Assembly: GCA_963700065.1 (NCBI GenBank)
Contig: CAVOWJ010000014.1
Location: forward strand, 35,692 to 99,691
DNA from: an uncultured Acidobacteriota bacterium
GTDB taxonomy: Bacteria > Acidobacteriota > Vicinamibacteria > Vicinamibacterales > JAKQTR01
Length of the DNA stretch: 64,000 nt
Direction of reading: 5' to 3'
The notes beneath the pieces were generated by a model that searched no databases, was not told where the DNA came from, and saw only the letters and a program-made list of their open reading frames with translations. This document shows, piece after piece, positions 3,729 through 29,001 of this stretch; within the stretch, counting starts at the first letter, position 1, and every line of letters starts with the position of its first letter. The translations under genes were made by a program, and so were the position numbers.

Positions 3729-4871
3729 ATGATGCGCAATCCAATCCTCTTCCTCTGTGGCGTGGCGCTGGTGACAGCCTCGGCGTGTTCGAAGGAAGCG
3801 CCTCCGGCCGCGCCTCCGCCGCCCGAGGTGATGGTGACCGAGCCTATCCAGCGAGACGTTCCTGTCTTCATGGAGCTGGTGGGCCAGGCCGTCGGGTTCC
3901 AGGATGTCGAAATCCGGGCGCGCGTCGAGGGTTTCCTCGAGACGGTGGCCTTCACGGAAGGCACGCTGGTGCGCAAGGGTCAGTTGCTGTACCACGATCG
4001 ACCCCAAGCCGCTGCAGGCGGCCGTCGCCAACGCGAAGGCCAATCTCGCGACGTGGCAGGCCAGGCTCGAGAAGTCGAAGAACGACGTCGCCCGCCTCAA
4101 GCCCCTGGCGGCGCAGCAGGCCGTCAGCCAGCAGGAACTGGACAACGCCCTGGCGGCCCAGGACGCGGCGGTCGCCCAGGTGGACGCCGCGAAAGCGGCT
4201 CTCGAGAAGGCTGAGTTCGATCTCGAGCTACACGACGATCAGCGCGCCGCATCGACGGCCTCATCGGGACGACGAAGGTGAAGGCGGGCAACCTCGTCGG
4301 GCGCGGCGAGAGCACGCTGCTCGTGACCATCTCGCAGATCGATCCGATCCTGTTCCGCGCGGGCATCGCCGAGGCCGAGTATCTCAAGGTGGCCAGGCGC
4401 TTCTCAGGAAGCGAGGGCGCAGGGGGTCGTCCAGGGCGAGAAGATGCCCATCCAGCTCGATGCTGGCTGACGGCACCGTGCATCCGCACGACGGGCCGCC
4501 TGGACGCCGTCGAGCGGAACGTCGACACGACCACCGGCACAATCGCGCTGCAGATCAAGTTCGCCAACCCCGAGCGCCTCGTCCGTCCGGGCCAGTTCGG
4601 CCGCGTGAAGTTCGACATCGACCAGAAGAAGGGCGCCCTGCTGGTGCCCCAGCGGGCCGTCCAGGAGCTGCAGAACCTCTACAGCCTGGCCGTGGTCGGG
4701 CCCGACAACAAGGTCACCTTCCGCAACGTGACGGTGGGGCCGCGCGAAGGGAGCCTCTGGGTGATCGAGGAGGGGCTGAAGGCCGGCGAGCGGGTGATTG
4801 TCGAGGGGCTCCAGAAGGTCCGCGAGGGAGCCGTCGTGGCGCCAAAGCCCATGGCGGCGGAGGTGAAGTAG
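3729..4871 (+). CDS. RND efflux periplasmic adaptor (MFP) lipoprotein; apparent frameshifts near 3995 and 4230, with a local shift near 4430-4490
   Basis: Lipobox ASAC; motifs VEIRARVEGFL, GNLVGRGE and LVRPGQFGRV are spread over three frames. Confidence 0.85.
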
Positions 4872-23734: not shown

Positions 23735-23773
23735 ACGGGGTCAGACACCACACGGCATGGTGTCTGACCCCGT
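23735..23773. repeat. REP-like perfect 16-bp inverted repeat between convergent genes
   Basis: ACGGGGTCAGACACCA-N7-TGGTGTCTGACCCCGT. Confidence 0.75.
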
Positions 23774-23803
23774 CTGTCTGAGGGGAATCGGGAACCCCTT
23801 GCG

Positions 23804-23866
23804 CTACCCGACGAACACCCGCCCGTTGCGGAACAGGCGCATCCAGCGGCTGTCCTCGCCCCAGCC
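23804..23866 (-). repeat. Displaced duplicate of the purL 3' end (direct repeat of 25143-25205)
   Basis: Encodes GWGEDSRWMRLFRNGRVFVG* versus pur[21 protein letters not shown]; 57/60 nt identical before the stop codon. Confidence 0.92.
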
Positions 23867-25042
23867 CTACCACTCAATCTCGTGGACCGCGAACCACGGC
23901 ACGACCGCGGCCTGCGTGCGCCGCTGGCGTTCCTGGCCGCCATACACCAGAATCGGATCGATCCGGGTATTGGCGGCGCCGAGGTCCTGGTTCGCGAGCC
24001 ACGACAGATCTCCGAAGAACTCACCGGCGACGGTCTGACCGGACTTGACCTCCACGGCCACGATGGCGTCGCCGCGCTCGACGACGAGGTCGACCTCGTG
24101 GCCCTGATGGTCGCGATAGAACGAGATCCGCGGGCGGCGGCCGGTGCTGAACATGGCCTTCAGCGCCTCGCAGACGACGTAGTTCTCGAAGAGCGCACCG
24201 CGCAGCGGGTGAGTGACCAACTGTACGGGCGTGCGGATGCCGAGCAGATAGCAGGCGAGCCCCGTGTCGTAGAAGTACGTCTTCGGCGCGCGGACAAGCC
24301 GCTTTCGGGTGTTGGTGTGGAACGGGTGAAGCCGGAACGCGACGTAGCTCGCCTCGAGCACGGACAGCCACGCCCGGGCCGTGTTGTGCGTCACACCCGC
24401 GTCGGCACCCAGCCGGGAGAGATTGAGCAACTGGCCCGTGCGGCCGGCCATCAGGCCGAGAAAAGCCTGGAACGCGGAGAGGTCGAGCACGTTCGTGATC
24501 CGGCGCACGTCCCGCTCGACGTAGGTCGACACATACGCCTCGTACCAGTCCGGCGGCGGAATGGCCCGATCGGGGATCGCCGGAAACCCTCCACGCCAGA
24601 TCTGGTCCCACAACGAGGGTGGTGTTCCGGGGAACCTCTCGTACTCCGGCCGCGAGCACGGCAACAGCGTCACCAGGCCCGTGCGTCCAGTCAGCGACTG
24701 CGAGACCGACGCCAGCAGGGCCAGATTCGCGGACCCGGTGAGCACGAAGCGTCCAGCCTCGGGCCGCTGGTCGACTTCCACCTGCAGATAGGACAGCAGA
24801 TCGGGTGCCCGCTGGACCTCGTCGATCACGGCTCCGGAGGAGTGAGCCTCCAGAAAGCCGCGCGGATCGCCGGTGGCGAAGGCGCGCTGGTCCAGCGCCT
24901 CGAGCGACACGTAGTGCTTGTCGGGAAAGAGCTGGCGGCACAACGTCGTCTTTCCCGACTGCCTGGGCCCTGTGATCGTGACGACGGGGAAGGACTGGCA
25001 GAGCGCCCGAACGTGCGGAGCGATGTCCCGTTGCACGGGCAT
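23867..25042 (-). CDS. AAA_14 + DUF4143 ATPase with a C-terminal PD-(D/E)xK-like domain
   Basis: Walker A GPRQSGKTT; Walker B VIDEVQ; LTGS; PKTYFYDTGL; GALFEN; EVDLVV...VEVKSG. Confidence 0.88.
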   Translation of the reverse strand: MPVQRDIAPHVRALCQSFPVVTITGPRQSGKTTLCRQLFPDKHYVSLEALDQRAFATGDPRGFLEAHSSGAVIDEVQRAPDLLSYLQVEVDQRPEAGRFVLTGSANLALLASVSQSLTGRTGLVTLLPCSRPEYERFPGTPPSLWDQIWRGGFPAIPDRAIPPPDWYEAYVSTYVERDVRRITNVLDLSAFQAFLGLMAGRTGQLLNLSRLGADAGVTHNTARAWLSVLEASYVAFRLHPFHTNTRKRLVRAPKTYFYDTGLACYLLGIRTPVQLVTHPLRGALFENYVVCEALKAMFSTGRRPRISFYRDHQGHEVDLVVERGDAIVAVEVKSGQTVAGEFFGDLSWLANQDLGAANTRIDPILVYGGQERQRRTQAAVVPWFAVHEIEW

Positions 25043-25048
25043 GCAAAG

Positions 25049-25077
25049 AGGATGTGGCAATCTATGAAAATTGTCAA
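25049..25077 (-). promoter_or_regulatory. Sigma70-type promoter giving a probable leaderless ATPase mRNA
   Basis: TTGACA-N17-CATCCT-N6-ATG in an AT-rich patch. Confidence 0.55.
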
Positions 25078-25142
25078 TCGGATTTACAGATTTCACGTCG
25101 CCGCCGCCGAACAACCGGAACATCGAAAAGACGACTGGGTCT

Positions 25143-28100
25143 TCACCCGACAAACACCCGCGCGTTGCGGAACAGGCGCATCCAGGGGCTGTCCTCGCCC
25201 CAGCCGTCCGGGTGCCACGAGAGCTGAACAGTCCGGAACACCCGCTCCGGATGCGGCATCAGCGCGGTGAAACGGCCGTCGGCCGTGGTCACGGCCGTGA
25301 GCCCGCCGGCCGACCCATTGGGGTTGAGCGGATAGGTTTCTGCCGGGCGGCCGCGGTTGTCGACGAACCGGCCGGCCGCCACGACCTTGCCCGCGTGCTC
25401 GGGCGTCTCGAACAGCGCCCGGCCCTCGCCGTGCGCCGTGACGACCTGGAGCCGGCTGCCCGCCATGCCCGAGAAGAACAGCGACGGGCTCTCCAGGATC
25501 TCCATCGTCGAGAGCCGCGCCTCGAACTGCTCGGAGGTGTTCTTGACGAAGCGCGGCCACGCCTCCGCCCCGGGGACGAGTTCCTTGAGCGCCGCCATCA
25601 TCTGGCAGCCGTTGCAGACGCCCAGGGCAAAGGTGTCGGGCCGCGCAAAGAACGCCGCGAACTCGTCGCGCGCGCGCGGGTTGTAGAGGATCGACTTCGC
25701 CCAGCCCTCGCCGCCGCCGAGCACGTCGCCGTAGGAGAAGCCGCCGCATGCGGCGAACGCGCGGAACGACGCGAGCGAGACCCGTCCTTCGATGATGTCG
25801 CTGACATGGACGTCGTGCGCCTCGAACCCTGCGCGATCGAAGGCGGCCGCCATCTCGACTTCCCCATTGACTCCCTGATCGCGGAGAATCGCGACTGGCG
25901 GCCTGGCGCCGGTGGCGATATAGGGCGCGGCGACGTCGTCGGCAGGATCGAAGGGCACGAACGGAGAGATGCCTGGGTCGCCCGCGTCGAGAATCCGGTC
26001 GTACTCCTCGCGGGCGGATTCGGGGTTGTCGCGCAGCGACTGCATCTGCCAGGTCGTCTCGCTCCAGGCGCGATGGAGCGCCGTCCGCGAGTCGCTGAAG
26101 AGCACATCCGAGCCTCGCACCACTCGGATCTCGCCGTCCTCGGTCACGCGGCCCACGGCGCGCGCGTCGAGGCCCCGAGCGCGCAAGGCGCCCAGTGCCA
26201 CATCGAGGTCGGCCTGGCGAACCTGGACGACCACTCCCAACTCCTCGGCGAACAGCGCCGCCGCCAGCCGGCCGTCGGTCGCGCACAGCGCGGCGGCGTC
26301 AATCGTCACGCCGGCGCGCCCCGCGAACGCCATTTCACAGATGGTCACGAACAGCCCGCCGTCGGAACGATCGTGGTAGGCGAGCACGCGGCCGGCCCGG
26401 CGCAATTCCGCGAGCGCGTCGAACAGGCCGCGAATCCTGGCCGGGTCGCCGACGTCAGGGGCCTCGTCGCCCGTCTCGTTGTAGACCTGCGCAAGGACGG
26501 ACCCGCCCAGCCGCGCCTGGCCGTTCGACAGATCGATGAGGACCAGGACGGTCGGTCCCGCGTCCTTCCGCAGCTGGGGCGTCCACGTCTCGCGCACGTC
26601 GTCGCACGGCGCGAAGGCGGAGACAAAGAGCGAGACCGGGCTGACGACCTCGGCTCGGCCGTCTCGGTCCTCCCAGGCGGTGCGCATCGACATCGAGTCC
26701 TTGCCGACCGGAATGCTCACGCCCAGGGCGGGGCAGAGGTCGAGGGCGACGGCGCGGACCGTGTCGAAGAGGGCCGCGTCCTCGCCCGGCGCGCCGGCGG
26801 CGGCCATCCAGTTCGCGGACAGTTTCACCAGCGAGAGCGCGCGAACGGGTGCCGCGGCCAGGTTCGTCAGCGCCTCGCCCACCGCCATCCGCCCCGACGC
26901 CGGCGCGTTGACCACCGCGAGCGGCGTGCGCTCGCCGATGGCGAACGCTTCCCCCGCGTAGCCGTGAAACGACAGCAGCGTGGTGGCGCAGTCGGCCACG
27001 GGCACCTGCCAGGGCCCGACACACTGATCGCGGGAGCACAGGCCGCCCACCGTCCGATCGCCGATCGCGATGAGGAAGGTCTTGTCGGCGACGGCCGGCG
27101 CGCGAAGGACGCGTGACACGGCATCGGCGAGGCTGACCGACGCGGCGTCGAACGGCCGGAGCGCCGGCGCGACGCGGCGCACCTCGCGCGTCATGCGCGG
27201 GGGCTTGCCCAGCAGGGCCGGCAGATCCATGTCGACCGCGTCGTTGCCGAACAGCGGGTCGTGGACCACGAGGTGATGGTCGTCGGTGACCGTGCCGACG
27301 ACGGCGAACGGGCAGCGCTCGCGCCGGCAGAGCGCGCCGAACGCGTCGAGGCGCTCGGGCGCGATCGCGAGCACGTAGCGCTCCTGGGCCTCGTTGCACC
27401 ACACCTCGCGCGGCGACATGCCGGGCTCTTCGTTCGGCGCCGCGCGCAGGTCGATGCGCGCGCCGCGGCCGGCCCCGTGGGCGATCTCGGGCAGGGCATT
27501 CGAGAGCCCGCCCGCGCCGACGTCGTGGATCGAGAGAATCGGGTTCGCGCCGCCGAGCGCCCAGCACCGATCGATCACCTCCTGGGCGCGGCGCTGGATC
27601 TCCGCGTTGCCTCGCTGCACGGAATCGAAGTCCAGATCGGCCGTGTTGGCGCCGGTCGTCATAGACGAGGCGGAGCCGCCGCCCATGCCGATCAGCATGC
27701 CGGGCCCGCCCAACTGGATGAGCAGGGCGCCGGCCGGAACGTCCGCCTTGTGCGCGTCGGCGGCCCGGATGTTGCCCACGCCGCCGGCCAGCATGATGGG
27801 CTTGTGGTAGCCGCGCCTGACGCCCGCGGCTTCCTGCTCGTAGGTCCGGAAATAGCCGGCGAGGTTCGGCCGCCCGAACTCGTTGTTGAACGACGCCGCC
27901 CCGATGGGCCCTTCGAGCATGATGGCGAGCGGTGAGGCGATGCGATCCGGCTTCGACTCGGCGCCCTCCCACGGACGCTCGAACCCGGGGATGCGCAGGT
28001 TCGACACCGAGAAGCCGCACAGACCGGCCTTCGGCTTCGAGCCCCGCCCGGTGGCGCCTTCGTCGCGGATCTCGCCGCCCGAACCGGTGGCCGCGCCCGG

Positions 28101-29001
28101 GAACGGCGAGATCGCCGTCGGGTGGTTGTGCGTCTCCACCTTCATCAGCGTGTGCGTCTCGTCTTCCCGGTAGCCGTAGCGGCCGGTGGCGGGGTCCGCG
28201 AAGAAGCGCCGCGCCATCCCGCCTTCCATCACCGCGGCGTTGTCCGAGTAGGCGCTCACGGTGCCCTGGGGGTTGGCCGCGTGCGTGGTGCGGATCATGC
28301 CGAAGAGCGAATGCGGCTGGGGCTCGCCGTCGACGACCCACGACGCGTTGAAGATCTTGTGGCGGCAGTGCTCCGAGTTCGCCTGCGCGAACATGGTGAG
28401 CTCGACGTCGGTCGGATTCCTGCGGCGGCCCGTGAAGTACGTCGACGAGGTAGTCGATCTCGTCCGGCGCCAGCGCCAGGCCGAATGCCTGGTTCGCTTC
28501 TTCGATCGCCTGCCGGCCGCGCGCGAGCACGGCGATCGTCGTCAGCGGCTTCGGCGGGACATGGCGGAAGAGCTCGTCGGCGTCGTCACACGAGCCGAGC
28601 ACCGTCTCCGTCATGCGGTCGTGCAGCAGCGGCAGGATCGGGCTGAGATCGCCTGTCGCCTCGAGATAGTAGACCGTTCCGCGCTCGATGCGGCGGATCG
28701 CGCCAAGCCCGCAGTGCGTTGCGATGTCGGTGGCCTTCGACGACCAGGGCGAGATCGTCCCCAGTCTCGGCGTGACGAGCACCTCGCGTCCGGCGGCCGC
28801 CGCAGCCGGGGCGCCGTACGTCAGCAGGCGATCGAGCGTCACCGCCTCTGCCGGATCGAGCGGCCGCTCCACCTCGACGAAATGCCAGAACCGGGCCGCG
28901 ACGACGCGCGCCGCCGGCTGGTCACGCTGCATGCGCGCGTTGAGCTTGTCGAGGCGGAACGCTGACAGGGCAGAGCCGCCGGCAATCTTGAGGACCGTCA
29001 T
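25143..29001 (-). CDS. purL: Phosphoribosylformylglycinamidine synthase, large single-chain type; apparent frameshift near 28440
   Basis: Motifs [44 protein letters not shown] and MPHPER. Confidence 0.95.

Follow-up and report, generated by a model that had tools for sequence, protein, structure and literature searches.

The 64,000-nt stretch of an uncultured Acidobacteriota genome analysed here (the window) very probably contains a genuine insertion into the end of purL, in which a cassette with a single AAA_14/DUF4143 ATPase gene is flanked by two copies of the purL tail. All features of this locus lie on the minus strand. The insertion target is a large-type purL, encoding FGAR amidotransferase (25143-29001), whose Pfam domains are found in two frames and whose assembly sequence has one frame break near 28441-28447. 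The two tail copies form a direct repeat of 61 nt (23806-23866 and 25145-25205) with 58/61 identical positions and a spacing of 1339. A blastn-short comparison of the pair gives E=1e-24, and no further copy of the tail is present in the assembly. Each copy encodes the final 20 residues of PurL, and 57 of the 60 coding positions are identical between them. The proximal copy (25145-25205) is joined to the gene body as its working 3' end and stops in TGA (25143-25145); the distal copy (23804-23866 with its stop codon) encodes GWGEDSRWMRLFRNGRVFVG and stops in TAG. The 1,339-bp unit between the copies contains one AAA_14/DUF4143 gene, a 391-aa ORF at 23867-25042, and the distal tail begins at the base directly after the ATPase stop codon, with 0 nt in between. 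Upstream of the ATPase start codon, at a distance of 23-53 nt, lies a 31-nt AT-rich imperfect palindrome that includes TTGACA (25065-25095). A spacer of about 49 nt (25096-25144) then leads to purL and is not part of the conserved unit described below; its last two bases complete the TGA stop. The identity of 57/60, the differing stop codons, and the abutment of the distal copy on the ATPase stop had all been reported in a sequence-only reading of this DNA and were reproduced here.

The empty form of the site is found in two genomes of the same genus (G003 and G002), which have a single purL tail followed directly by the same downstream gene and terminator. Both flanks of our query match one and the same tail in each of these genomes, and this tail ends in TAG, like the distal copy of the window. 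A terminator-like hairpin with perfect arms of 16 nt and a 7-nt loop (23735-23773) is shared with G003, where it stands after the one purL tail; in the window, this original terminator of purL now lies downstream of the relic tail. The distal copy has acquired two unique non-synonymous changes (P to R and A to G) at residues that are kept in 12/12 full-length tails of relatives, and against each of 13/13 relative purL tails the proximal copy has fewer mismatches than the distal one. Because it retains the ancestral TAG stop and the terminator and carries two derived non-synonymous changes, the distal copy is, as judged by sequence comparison, the displaced original tail of purL, now a decaying, non-coding relic, with the proximal copy keeping purL intact. 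The comparison with relatives lacking the ATPase, proposed in the earlier reading as a way to find the ancestral tail, thus points to the distal one.

The insert contains one ORF family, with no recombinase gene within or adjoining it, and a search of the 226-kb contig C14 for Phage_integrase (PF00589) gave no match. Together with the empty site in G003 and G002, this bears out the earlier description of a real, integrase-free, single-gene insertion. It is highly improbable that the cassette was instead ancestral at purL and lost from the relatives by recombination between the repeats, or that the arrangement is an assembly artefact or a chance repeat. Repeat-mediated loop-out would restore exactly the single-tail state of G002 and G003, and the source assembly (5.5 Mb in 15 contigs, 87.5% complete) does break the frame of purL at least once. 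However, an ATPase at purL occurs in one genome only (G000) among the 41 related genomes searched, a loss would leave the origin of the duplication unexplained, and the significance of the repeat match and the independent public contigs that bridge both junctions speak against chance and artefact. In the collected sets, none of the other loci of the family adjoins purL.

The bridging of the junctions was assessed in those parts of the window that are covered by public metagenome contigs. Positions 23848-25535 are covered without gaps by a 1688-nt contig from run X1, possibly the source sample, and positions 23833-24176 by a 344-nt contig from run X3. Misassembly at the purL tail duplication, which would have undone the sequence-only reading, is unlikely because these contigs bridge both junctions. 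A contig from run X5 displays a different joint, in which the spacer is connected to 16 nt of the native flank that follows the stop codon, and then to the tail (25145 joined to 23790); one X5 contig "goes back 1356". This contig could represent a chromosomal variant with a 77-nt repeat, or alternatively a circle or tandem form. Since it joins the spacer to the 16-nt post-stop flank and the tail, the original duplication was probably 77 nt long and ran 16 nt past the stop codon.

Across relatives, the gene and its upstream palindrome of about 31 bp appear from their sequences to behave as a discrete unit. A palindrome score of at least 10 was reached in 39/142 upstream windows of the family versus 3/250 control windows. 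The conserved unit has its 5' edge at the palindrome, and nucleotide homology to the cassette at locus L015 starts 54 nt upstream of the ATG. Three cassettes (in G063, G310, and G129) are 96% identical to each other and have no adjacent flank in common; their homology begins at the edge of the palindrome and ends 0-2 nt beyond the stop codon. The locus occupied in G063 is free of the cassette in G310 and G282, which provides an empty site within the same genus; the intergenic DNA of the occupied and empty loci could not be aligned, such that the presence or absence of a short duplication could not be read there. In all loci viewed, the cassettes are solitary. The palindrome presumably acts as an operator or promoter. 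As a scan for consensus promoters gave no site above its thresholds, this assignment derives from its position and its conservation across relatives.

Flanking direct repeats recur around the AAA_14/DUF4143 family beyond the purL locus, in 14/117 other family loci compared with 0/139 shifted windows. The earlier reading had staked its case on tail duplications being more frequent here than around other accessory genes, and this expectation was borne out in part. Two other accessory families have flanking repeats in 4/58 loci, which does not differ clearly from 14/117 (p=0.22). Repeats of at least 60 nt, in contrast, flank 10/117 family loci and 0/58 loci of the two other families (p=0.016), so that the enrichment holds for these long repeats but not at the general threshold. 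The repeats are also heterogeneous: they comprise gene tails, tRNA ends, and dispersed repeats that differ from locus to locus, their lengths range from 22 to 219 nt, and many cassettes have none. Rfam and tRNA scans of the repeat-bearing loci called the known tRNAs of L019 and L063 only, and a tRNA-like fragment at L202 was not called. The window's own genome contains 320 pairs of close direct repeats; most of these are paralogous genes or tandem repeats, and the list is unfit as an unbiased screen.

How the cassette arrived can be approached from these repeats, and the mechanism that we tentatively place first is homology-anchored recombination, with one homologous side and one illegitimate joint; a long duplication at a staggered break comes second, and an integrase in trans third. 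Under homology anchoring, the incoming DNA would bring a copy of the purL tail, which would undergo ordinary homologous recombination with the resident tail on one side, and on the other side an illegitimate join would form exactly at the cassette 3' end. The donor would be either a linear fragment, in a one-sided, homology-facilitated illegitimate recombination, or a small circle entering by a single crossover. Such an event would duplicate the purL tail and shift the former end of the gene, TAG stop and terminator included, 1.34 kb downstream. A cassette held between such repeats could then be excised by looping out and insert again wherever a genome retains that conserved gene tail.

Homologous anchoring seems to be visible in the sequence of relative L068. 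Here, the repeat copy attached to the gene continues into 55 nt with a 92% match to the native upstream region of a paralogue, and the second copy consists of nothing but a 91-nt gene fragment located 16 nt after the ATPase stop. At a paralogue of the cassette gene in the window's own genome, next to a tRNA-Ser, the part of the repeat that covers the tRNA 3' end is identical at 35/35 positions and the adjoining 125 nt at only about 77%, which fits an origin of this flank from a related donor. In the window, the proximal copy is followed by a different stop codon and 49 nt of apparently foreign spacer. Homology-facilitated illegitimate recombination and Campbell-type single crossover are known to leave foreign DNA flanked by a duplicated anchor, mainly in laboratory transformation and not as a way in which one gene family repeatedly spreads in nature. 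The structure of L068 fits them, but the sharp cassette ends are left unexplained.

Several observations run counter to homology anchoring. Spacer-like sequence follows purL in 0/13 relative tails, and no donor was found among them. Neither is there a foreign tract at the purL 3' end, where sliding identity against G003, G002, and two other genomes detected no unusual divergence. The 77-nt duplication implied by the X5 contig runs past the stop codon. A donor of the same species should usually recombine on both sides, leaving no repeat, and the coincidence of the repeat edge with the cassette 3' end points to a defined DNA end, for which this model has no explanation. The homology-anchored option of the sequence-only reading is ranked first here, with its purL donor missing among the 13 relatives.

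A defined DNA end is the starting point of a second explanation, which we regard as somewhat unlikely. It proposes that a staggered double-strand break, with nicks 61-77 nt apart, received a defined linear cassette by ligation and that fill-in produced a target-site duplication that is unusually long and varies in length. Either the PD-(D/E)xK nuclease and ATPase encoded by the cassette or a host system could have made the cuts. Both repeat copies would then be derived from the target, in keeping with repeats that are unrelated between loci, and the distal copy would directly abut (0 nt) the cassette 3' end, which is the end of the unit throughout the family. The X5 duplication of 77 nt across the stop codon is what a blind cut would give, an equally good fit with one event fewer. 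At L058, the repeats directly abut the unit, with gaps of 5 nt and 29 nt, and L197 has a 95-nt repeat pair that is unique in its genome. L068, on the other hand, cannot have arisen by simple duplication of its target. Nor does insertion always produce long duplications, because the 96%-identical trio has none, and each genome checked has one close copy of the cassette, with no burst. To our knowledge, no prokaryotic transposition generates duplications of 22-219 nt, and the protein has the folds of a STAND ATPase and a nuclease effector but neither a DDE or HUH fold nor that of a recombinase. The cassette further differs from insertion sequences and transposons in having one palindrome, at its 5' end only, in place of terminal inverted repeats, and no target duplication that is short and constant in length.

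The sequence-only reading had seen in the two tails the attL/attR signature of integration into a gene. Such a pair would result if a tyrosine recombinase had acted in trans or if an integrative island had decayed to a CIME-like remnant, yet we consider this origin quite unlikely. Classically, an att site reveals itself by a duplicated 3' end of a tRNA or conserved gene, and such a duplication is seen in the purL repeats and, with the identical tRNA-Ser 3' end, at the own-genome paralogue. The tRNA-like 3' fragment with which the repeat at L202 starts is present at four other places in the same genome, a pattern like that of accretion at an att site, and the cassette at L063 lies about 0.8 kb from an integrase and a tRNA-Asn. 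The genome of the window also has 13 Phage_integrase matches, all off contig C14, that could act in trans. Against this, neither the insert nor contig C14 contains an integrase, and tblastn with a single query, a search of low sensitivity, detected none beside purL in 13 relative loci. The repeats differ by locus, an attP would not fit into the conserved unit, the X5 contig suggests a duplication that continues past the stop, and the copies differ at 3/61 positions. Decayed islands of independent origin are also unlikely to have all retained precisely this gene, each time with 0-33 nt between its stop codon and the repeat. CIMEs are integrase-less, att-flanked elements that are mobilised in trans and have the defined attL and attR of a known integrase family. 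Like the insert in the window, they are small, lack a recombinase of their own, and have direct repeats containing the 3' end of a conserved gene; unlike in CIMEs, the repeats of this family vary between 22 and 219 nt, are locus-specific and often absent, and no cognate integrase was identified.

Integron cassettes and Xer-dependent dif/pdif modules are likewise one-gene units with a palindromic site at one end that occur in many contexts. An integron cassette consists of an ORF that lacks a promoter and precedes an attC, and it stands in an array beside intI. In the present cassette, however, the palindrome lies upstream and overlaps a -35-like hexamer, and the unit has its own putative expression signals, with no attC-like 3' site, array, or neighbouring intI; dif-like sequence is also absent from it.

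The encoded protein resembles a defence protein more than a recombinase. It matches AAA_14 (PF13173, E=4e-24) and DUF4143 (PF13635, E=2e-48), as well as the PADLOC model PDLC04790, candidate PDC-S01, over its full length (residues 3-382, E=7e-105); NCBIfam gave weak YraN-like matches only. In an alignment of 16 sequences, the Walker A motif GPRQSGKT, D74-E75, D318, E331, and K333 are invariant or nearly so, the last three being invariant in 16 relatives. A sequence search of solved structures gave a best E value of 0.22; a structure model of the 391-aa protein has a pLDDT of 87. Foldseek matched the ATPase-winged-helix part of this model best to the STAND protein 6mfv, followed by the archaeal ATPases 2qen and 2fna (TMq 0.43-0.45), with further matches to Orc1/Cdc6, MalT, NLRs, and Avs5, and matched the nuclease part to the CARF nucleases Card1 and Can2 and to Cdn1. 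Sequence identity to all structural matches is 7-18%, and the matches listed are STAND/AAA+ ATPases and PD-(D/E)xK nucleases only; folds of transposases or recombinases (DDE, HUH, Tyr, or Ser) are not among them. On this model, the protein is a STAND/Orc-like ATPase with a winged-helix region and a PD-(D/E)xK nuclease. It ends after the nuclease, with its native C-terminus and no repeat domain. Its NTPase/winged-helix and nuclease parts correspond to those of Avs-like STAND NTPases, but the C-terminal sensor repeats are missing; the modelled protein may share a STAND-like working mode, yet it is no member of that group.

PDC-S01 is described, in the available parts of one study, as an ATPase fused to a PD-(D/E)xK domain and the fourth most common prokaryotic defence candidate, with tens of thousands of copies and unvalidated anti-phage activity (PMC12988326). 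The window protein has the same two Pfam domains as PDC-S01 and COG1373, in addition to the full-length HMM match. Another study, in the parts available, treats PDC-S01 as a defence candidate found through its embedding in other systems and offers a "genomic sink" idea for single defence genes inside operons (bioRxiv 10.1101/2024.01.29.577857). The available parts of both sources make no mention of cassette boundaries, an upstream palindrome, or flanking duplications, and the accessible passages of the literature on DUF4143, COG1373, and PDC-S01 yielded no description of mobility.

An unlikely but consequential possibility is that PDC-S01 genes are autonomous selfish cassettes. The winged-helix ATPase would bind the palindrome and the PD-(D/E)xK nuclease would cut, moving the palindrome-to-stop unit without a recombinase and either leaving long, variable target duplications or carrying the old flank along as a homology "address"; embedding in defence operons would then be a consequence of the cassette's own mobility. 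The sequence-only reading had likewise suggested that the ATPase-nuclease promotes its own spread, a proposal to which the fold, defence-like rather than recombinase-like, lends no support. If the cassette does move by itself, the PDC-S01 family would have to be rethought as a mobile element, beside or instead of an immune gene. If its transfer is homology-anchored, conserved gene tails and tRNA ends would serve as addresses for integrase-free gene transfer. Either way, the question bears on how single defence genes reach operons and the ends of housekeeping genes, for which the purL locus is a clean natural example, with an empty site in congeners, both junctions intact, and population variants in public metagenomes. 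A scan of the genome contigs with a single protein query detected four relatives.

The purL gene, whose Pfam domains are those of the large FGAR amidotransferase type, ends at 25143 on the minus strand, which carries every gene discussed here. Its attached tail (the proximal copy, 61 nt, 25145-25205) ends in TGA and is followed, in gene direction, by a spacer of about 49 nt, an imperfect 31-nt palindrome containing TTGACA (25065-25095), and a 391-aa open reading frame with AAA_14 and DUF4143 domains that runs from 25042 down to 23867. A second, distal copy of the tail (61 nt, 23806-23866), ending in TAG, abuts the stop codon of this ATPase with 0 nt between them, and a hairpin with a perfect 16-bp stem lies after it (23735-23773). 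The two copies are identical at 58/61 positions (E=1e-24), each encodes the purL C terminus on translation, and the tail occurs nowhere else in the 5.5-Mb assembly; the repeat and its differing stops, first noticed in a sequence-only reading, are thus confirmed, as is that observation overall by the empty site and junction contigs described below. The locus is an insertion that lacks an integrase and has duplicated the end of a gene, a known kind of event that is found here in a family of defence candidates. Within purL itself, near 28441-28447 (minus strand), the reading frame is broken between the first 185 codons (ATG at 29001) and the remainder. Compared with G002, a genome of the same genus, purL has one base too many between DEIDYLV and an 11-residue motif. 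The cause may be an indel introduced in assembly or a true frameshift; the G002 copy itself has several frame breaks.

Relatives without the ATPase indicate which tail is ancestral. In G002 and G003, both of the same genus, the site is empty: the purL body and the gene downstream of the distal copy meet at one shared 61-nt tail, which ends in TAG in each alignment, and the hairpin is also present in G003. In a search of 41 related genomes, the ATPase lies at purL in the window's own genome alone. The distal copy carries two unique nonsynonymous changes, where 12/12 full-length relative tails have P and A; the third difference between the copies falls at a synonymous site that varies among relatives too; against each of 13 relative tails, the proximal copy has fewer mismatches. 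Given the TAG stop and context shared with relatives, the unique changes, and the larger number of mismatches, the distal copy is the displaced original end of purL, now drifting, and the proximal copy is the one that serves purL. On a contig of the relative G021 (L052, G021:C1:2318-2469, and L053), a gene of the IS91 family (Y2 transposase) comes after a 152-nt fragment of the purL 3' end that shares 80% identity with purL in the window. The full purL is on another contig whose flanks are about 85% identical, so the fragment stems from a second strain or from a copy that has been rearranged.

Misassembly, which would have undone the observation, is not borne out by public metagenome contigs. 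Across 18 runs from 12 studies, 0.27-0.48 of the stretch's sampled words are present, and four runs were compared at 90% likeness. A 1688-nt contig from run X1, which may be the source sample, aligns gap-free over 23848-25535 with 47 differences, passing through the spacer and the proximal copy into purL, and a 344-nt contig from X3 (23833-24176) crosses the junction between distal copy and ATPase; X3 and a further run, X5, come from other studies. Because these contigs cross the insert junctions, the purL-tail insertion is unlikely to be an assembly artefact. On contigs from X1, X2, and X3 the neighbouring channel gene sits right beside a purL tail, and these are empty-site-like forms of other organisms.

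The encoded protein matches the PADLOC phage-defence candidate PDC-S01 (E=7e-105), and its Walker A/B motifs and D-E-K nuclease triad are conserved in alignment with relatives. Its C terminus is the family's native end (VPW, six residues, W), so the junction has neither truncated nor lengthened the reading frame. AlphaFold gives a confident model (pLDDT 87, pTM 0.88), for which the best Foldseek matches are 6mfv, a STAND protein, and two archaeal ATPases, 2qen and 2fna, followed by Orc1/Cdc6, MalT, NLRs, and Avs5; the nuclease part matches Card1, Can2, and Cdn1, and the matches listed include neither a recombinase nor a transposase fold. DUF4143 has been described as a PD-(D/E)xK family of unknown function (PMC3424549), PDC-S01 as the fourth most common defence candidate, unvalidated and transferring across domains (PMC12988326), and a preprint proposes a "genomic sink" to account for the embedding of genes of this sort (bioRxiv 10.1101/2024.01.29.577857). 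In searches of the literature on DUF4143, COG1373, and PDC-S01 we came across no account of where the cassette ends or of duplications beside it, nor of cassette-like behaviour in this abundant defence-candidate family.

The gene and its upstream palindrome behave as a discrete cassette in relatives. Among eight cassette pairs with nucleotide identity of at least 82%, homology is limited to the cassette in five, and flanks are shared in three (L064/L065, L045/L046, and L032/L035). In the clearest case, the cassettes of genomes G063, G310, and G129 are 96% identical across about 1,230 nt, with the adjoining 90 nt unrelated on either side; homology starts no more than 2 nt from the outer edge of the palindrome and stops 0-2 nt after the stop codon, the final 13 nt differing in G129. 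The G063 locus exists without the cassette in G310 and G282, where the flanks lie 256 and 293 nt apart, versus 1,476 nt in G063. Since some of the six genus-g37 loci share one-sided DNA farther out (G063/G294, G310/G129, and G282/G247), the sharpness of the edges in the 87-89% pairs may stem partly from rapid divergence of intergenic DNA where the loci are orthologous. In every genome checked there is a single close copy of the cassette. Nucleotide homology between the window cassette and that at L015 begins 54 nt upstream of the start codon, at the palindrome, and palindrome scores of at least 10 occur in 39/142 family upstream windows versus 3/250 control windows from the same loci; the upstream palindrome is a family trait. 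At the metagenomic locus L094, a 37-nt palindrome stretch (2933-2969) is repeated perfectly at 4150-4186, 4 nt past the stop and with no second ATPase gene behind it, which may hint that recombination takes place at the palindrome. At L056 (4165-4240), an ORF with an SEC-C motif overlaps the ATPase stop through a shared ATGA, and the cassette at L058 (4165-4220) carries the first 53 nt of that ORF; this truncated passenger shows that cassette copies can carry a piece of an earlier 3' neighbour.

Flanking direct repeats were surveyed by blastn-short between 500-nt flanks (E<=1e-6). They occur at 10 of 93 family loci from same-order genomes and from genome and metagenome contigs (9 of 92 without the window; loci with flanks under 300 nt left out), at 5 of 25 drawn from the phylum's 30 best Pfam DUF4143 loci (two duplicates and three short loci left out), and on 1 of 10 viral contigs (5 of 15 were short and left out). 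Shifted windows in the same loci gave 0 of 139, the AAA_21 family 1 of 29, far from the gene, the Uma2 family 3 of 29, including one tandem paralogue and one tight 25-nt pair (one unpublished genome left out of each family), and random own-genome windows with 1.4-kb flanks 9 of 450. A 22-nt pair at L023 lies on too short a contig and is not counted. The expectation that repeats are commoner around DUF4143 genes than around other accessory genes is not supported at the general threshold (14/117 versus 4/58, Fisher p=0.22, viral sample left out) and holds for repeats of at least 60 nt (10/117 versus 0/58, p=0.016, a cut-off picked after seeing the data; versus all controls, 0/197, p=4e-5), with all p values overstating the evidence because related sequences are non-independent. 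The tight Uma2 pair (L233 in G502, gene on the minus strand) is a perfect direct repeat, one copy at 803-827 and the other at 1491-1515 (numbered in gene orientation); the copies lie within 15 and 50 nt of the ends of the gene, so short flanking repeats are not unique to the DUF4143 family. The window's genome also holds three 32-39-nt direct-repeat pairs with 7-nt periodic offsets and copies spaced about 1350-1370 nt (C2:684761-686157, C2:697081-698487, and C8:617039-618434), which may be another small repeat-flanked element.

The repeats are of many kinds. Besides the purL tail, they comprise gene ends (86 nt of rsmG at L114, its edge inside the stop codon; 28 nt of a Uma2-family gene at L024), a tRNA-Ser end at the own-genome paralogue L019, and 5' gene parts (215 nt of a multi-copy IS200-like gene at L058; 91 nt of a small ORF with a paralogue nearby at L068). 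Others are a tRNA-like 3' fragment with four further occurrences in its genome (L202), a dispersed repeat with many other partial copies (L212), a tandem 52-nt array (L082), the cassette's own palindrome on either side (L094, 37 nt, 100% identical), and pairs of unknown content, one of them unique in its genome (L197). Between-locus comparison found no sequence common to repeats of different loci. The dispersed repeat of G516 (L212:1146-1272 and 2626-2768) is GC-rich, about 40-80 nt long, and REP-like, flanking the cassette on both sides and recurring on many other contigs.

L068 is the most informative relative for mechanism. Between its gene-attached copy and the palindrome lie 55 nt that are 92% identical to the native upstream region of a paralogue. 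The other copy, 16 nt past the ATPase stop, is no more than a 91-nt piece of the gene, and the AT-rich DNA beyond it is unrelated. This is the layout expected of homology-anchored recombination, which we tentatively rank first: a homologous crossover would join one side and an illegitimate joint the other, and the proximal side would derive from donor DNA. L019 (C5:370465-372776), a second DUF4143 paralogue, about 40% identical, lies alone in a segment of ~2.09 kb beside tRNA-Ser(GGA), with no integrase near it; its repeat is identical over the tRNA part (35/35) and about 77% over the next ~125 nt, consistent with a flank that came in from a related donor. The window's own evidence is split, as its foreign spacer and differing stop codon suit a donor-derived proximal side, while the lack of a donor among the 13 relatives' purL tails and of any visible foreign tract in purL counts against it.

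A long staggered-break duplication of the target is a doubtful alternative, on which a 1489-nt contig from X5 bears. This contig runs from 23839 to 25145 and resumes at 23790, a joint placed at 90% likeness and, like any below 95%, to be read with caution; in that organism the spacer meets 16 nt of native post-stop flank plus the tail. We read the joint as a variant with a 77-nt duplication that includes the TAG stop, which would make the window form a 17-nt deletion derivative with a T+GA stop left by chance, although a 1356-nt circular or tandem form could also yield it. The variant suits a 77-nt target duplication equally well, but the L068 layout is unlike what target-site duplication would leave and argues against it. 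The interpretation given in the sequence-only reading is supported in part. It had offered homology-anchored recombination, which we rank first, beside an integrase acting in trans, which we consider unlikely: 13 PF00589 (Phage_integrase) matches lie elsewhere in the genome and the tRNA-end repeats look att-like, yet the conserved unit leaves no room for attP, and several decayed islands are unlikely all to have retained just the DUF4143 gene, flush against the repeat. The rest of the probability falls to other causes or artefact. The sharp recurrent unit, running from palindrome edge to stop codon, is explained by none of these readings and is the feature in which something new is likeliest to lie.
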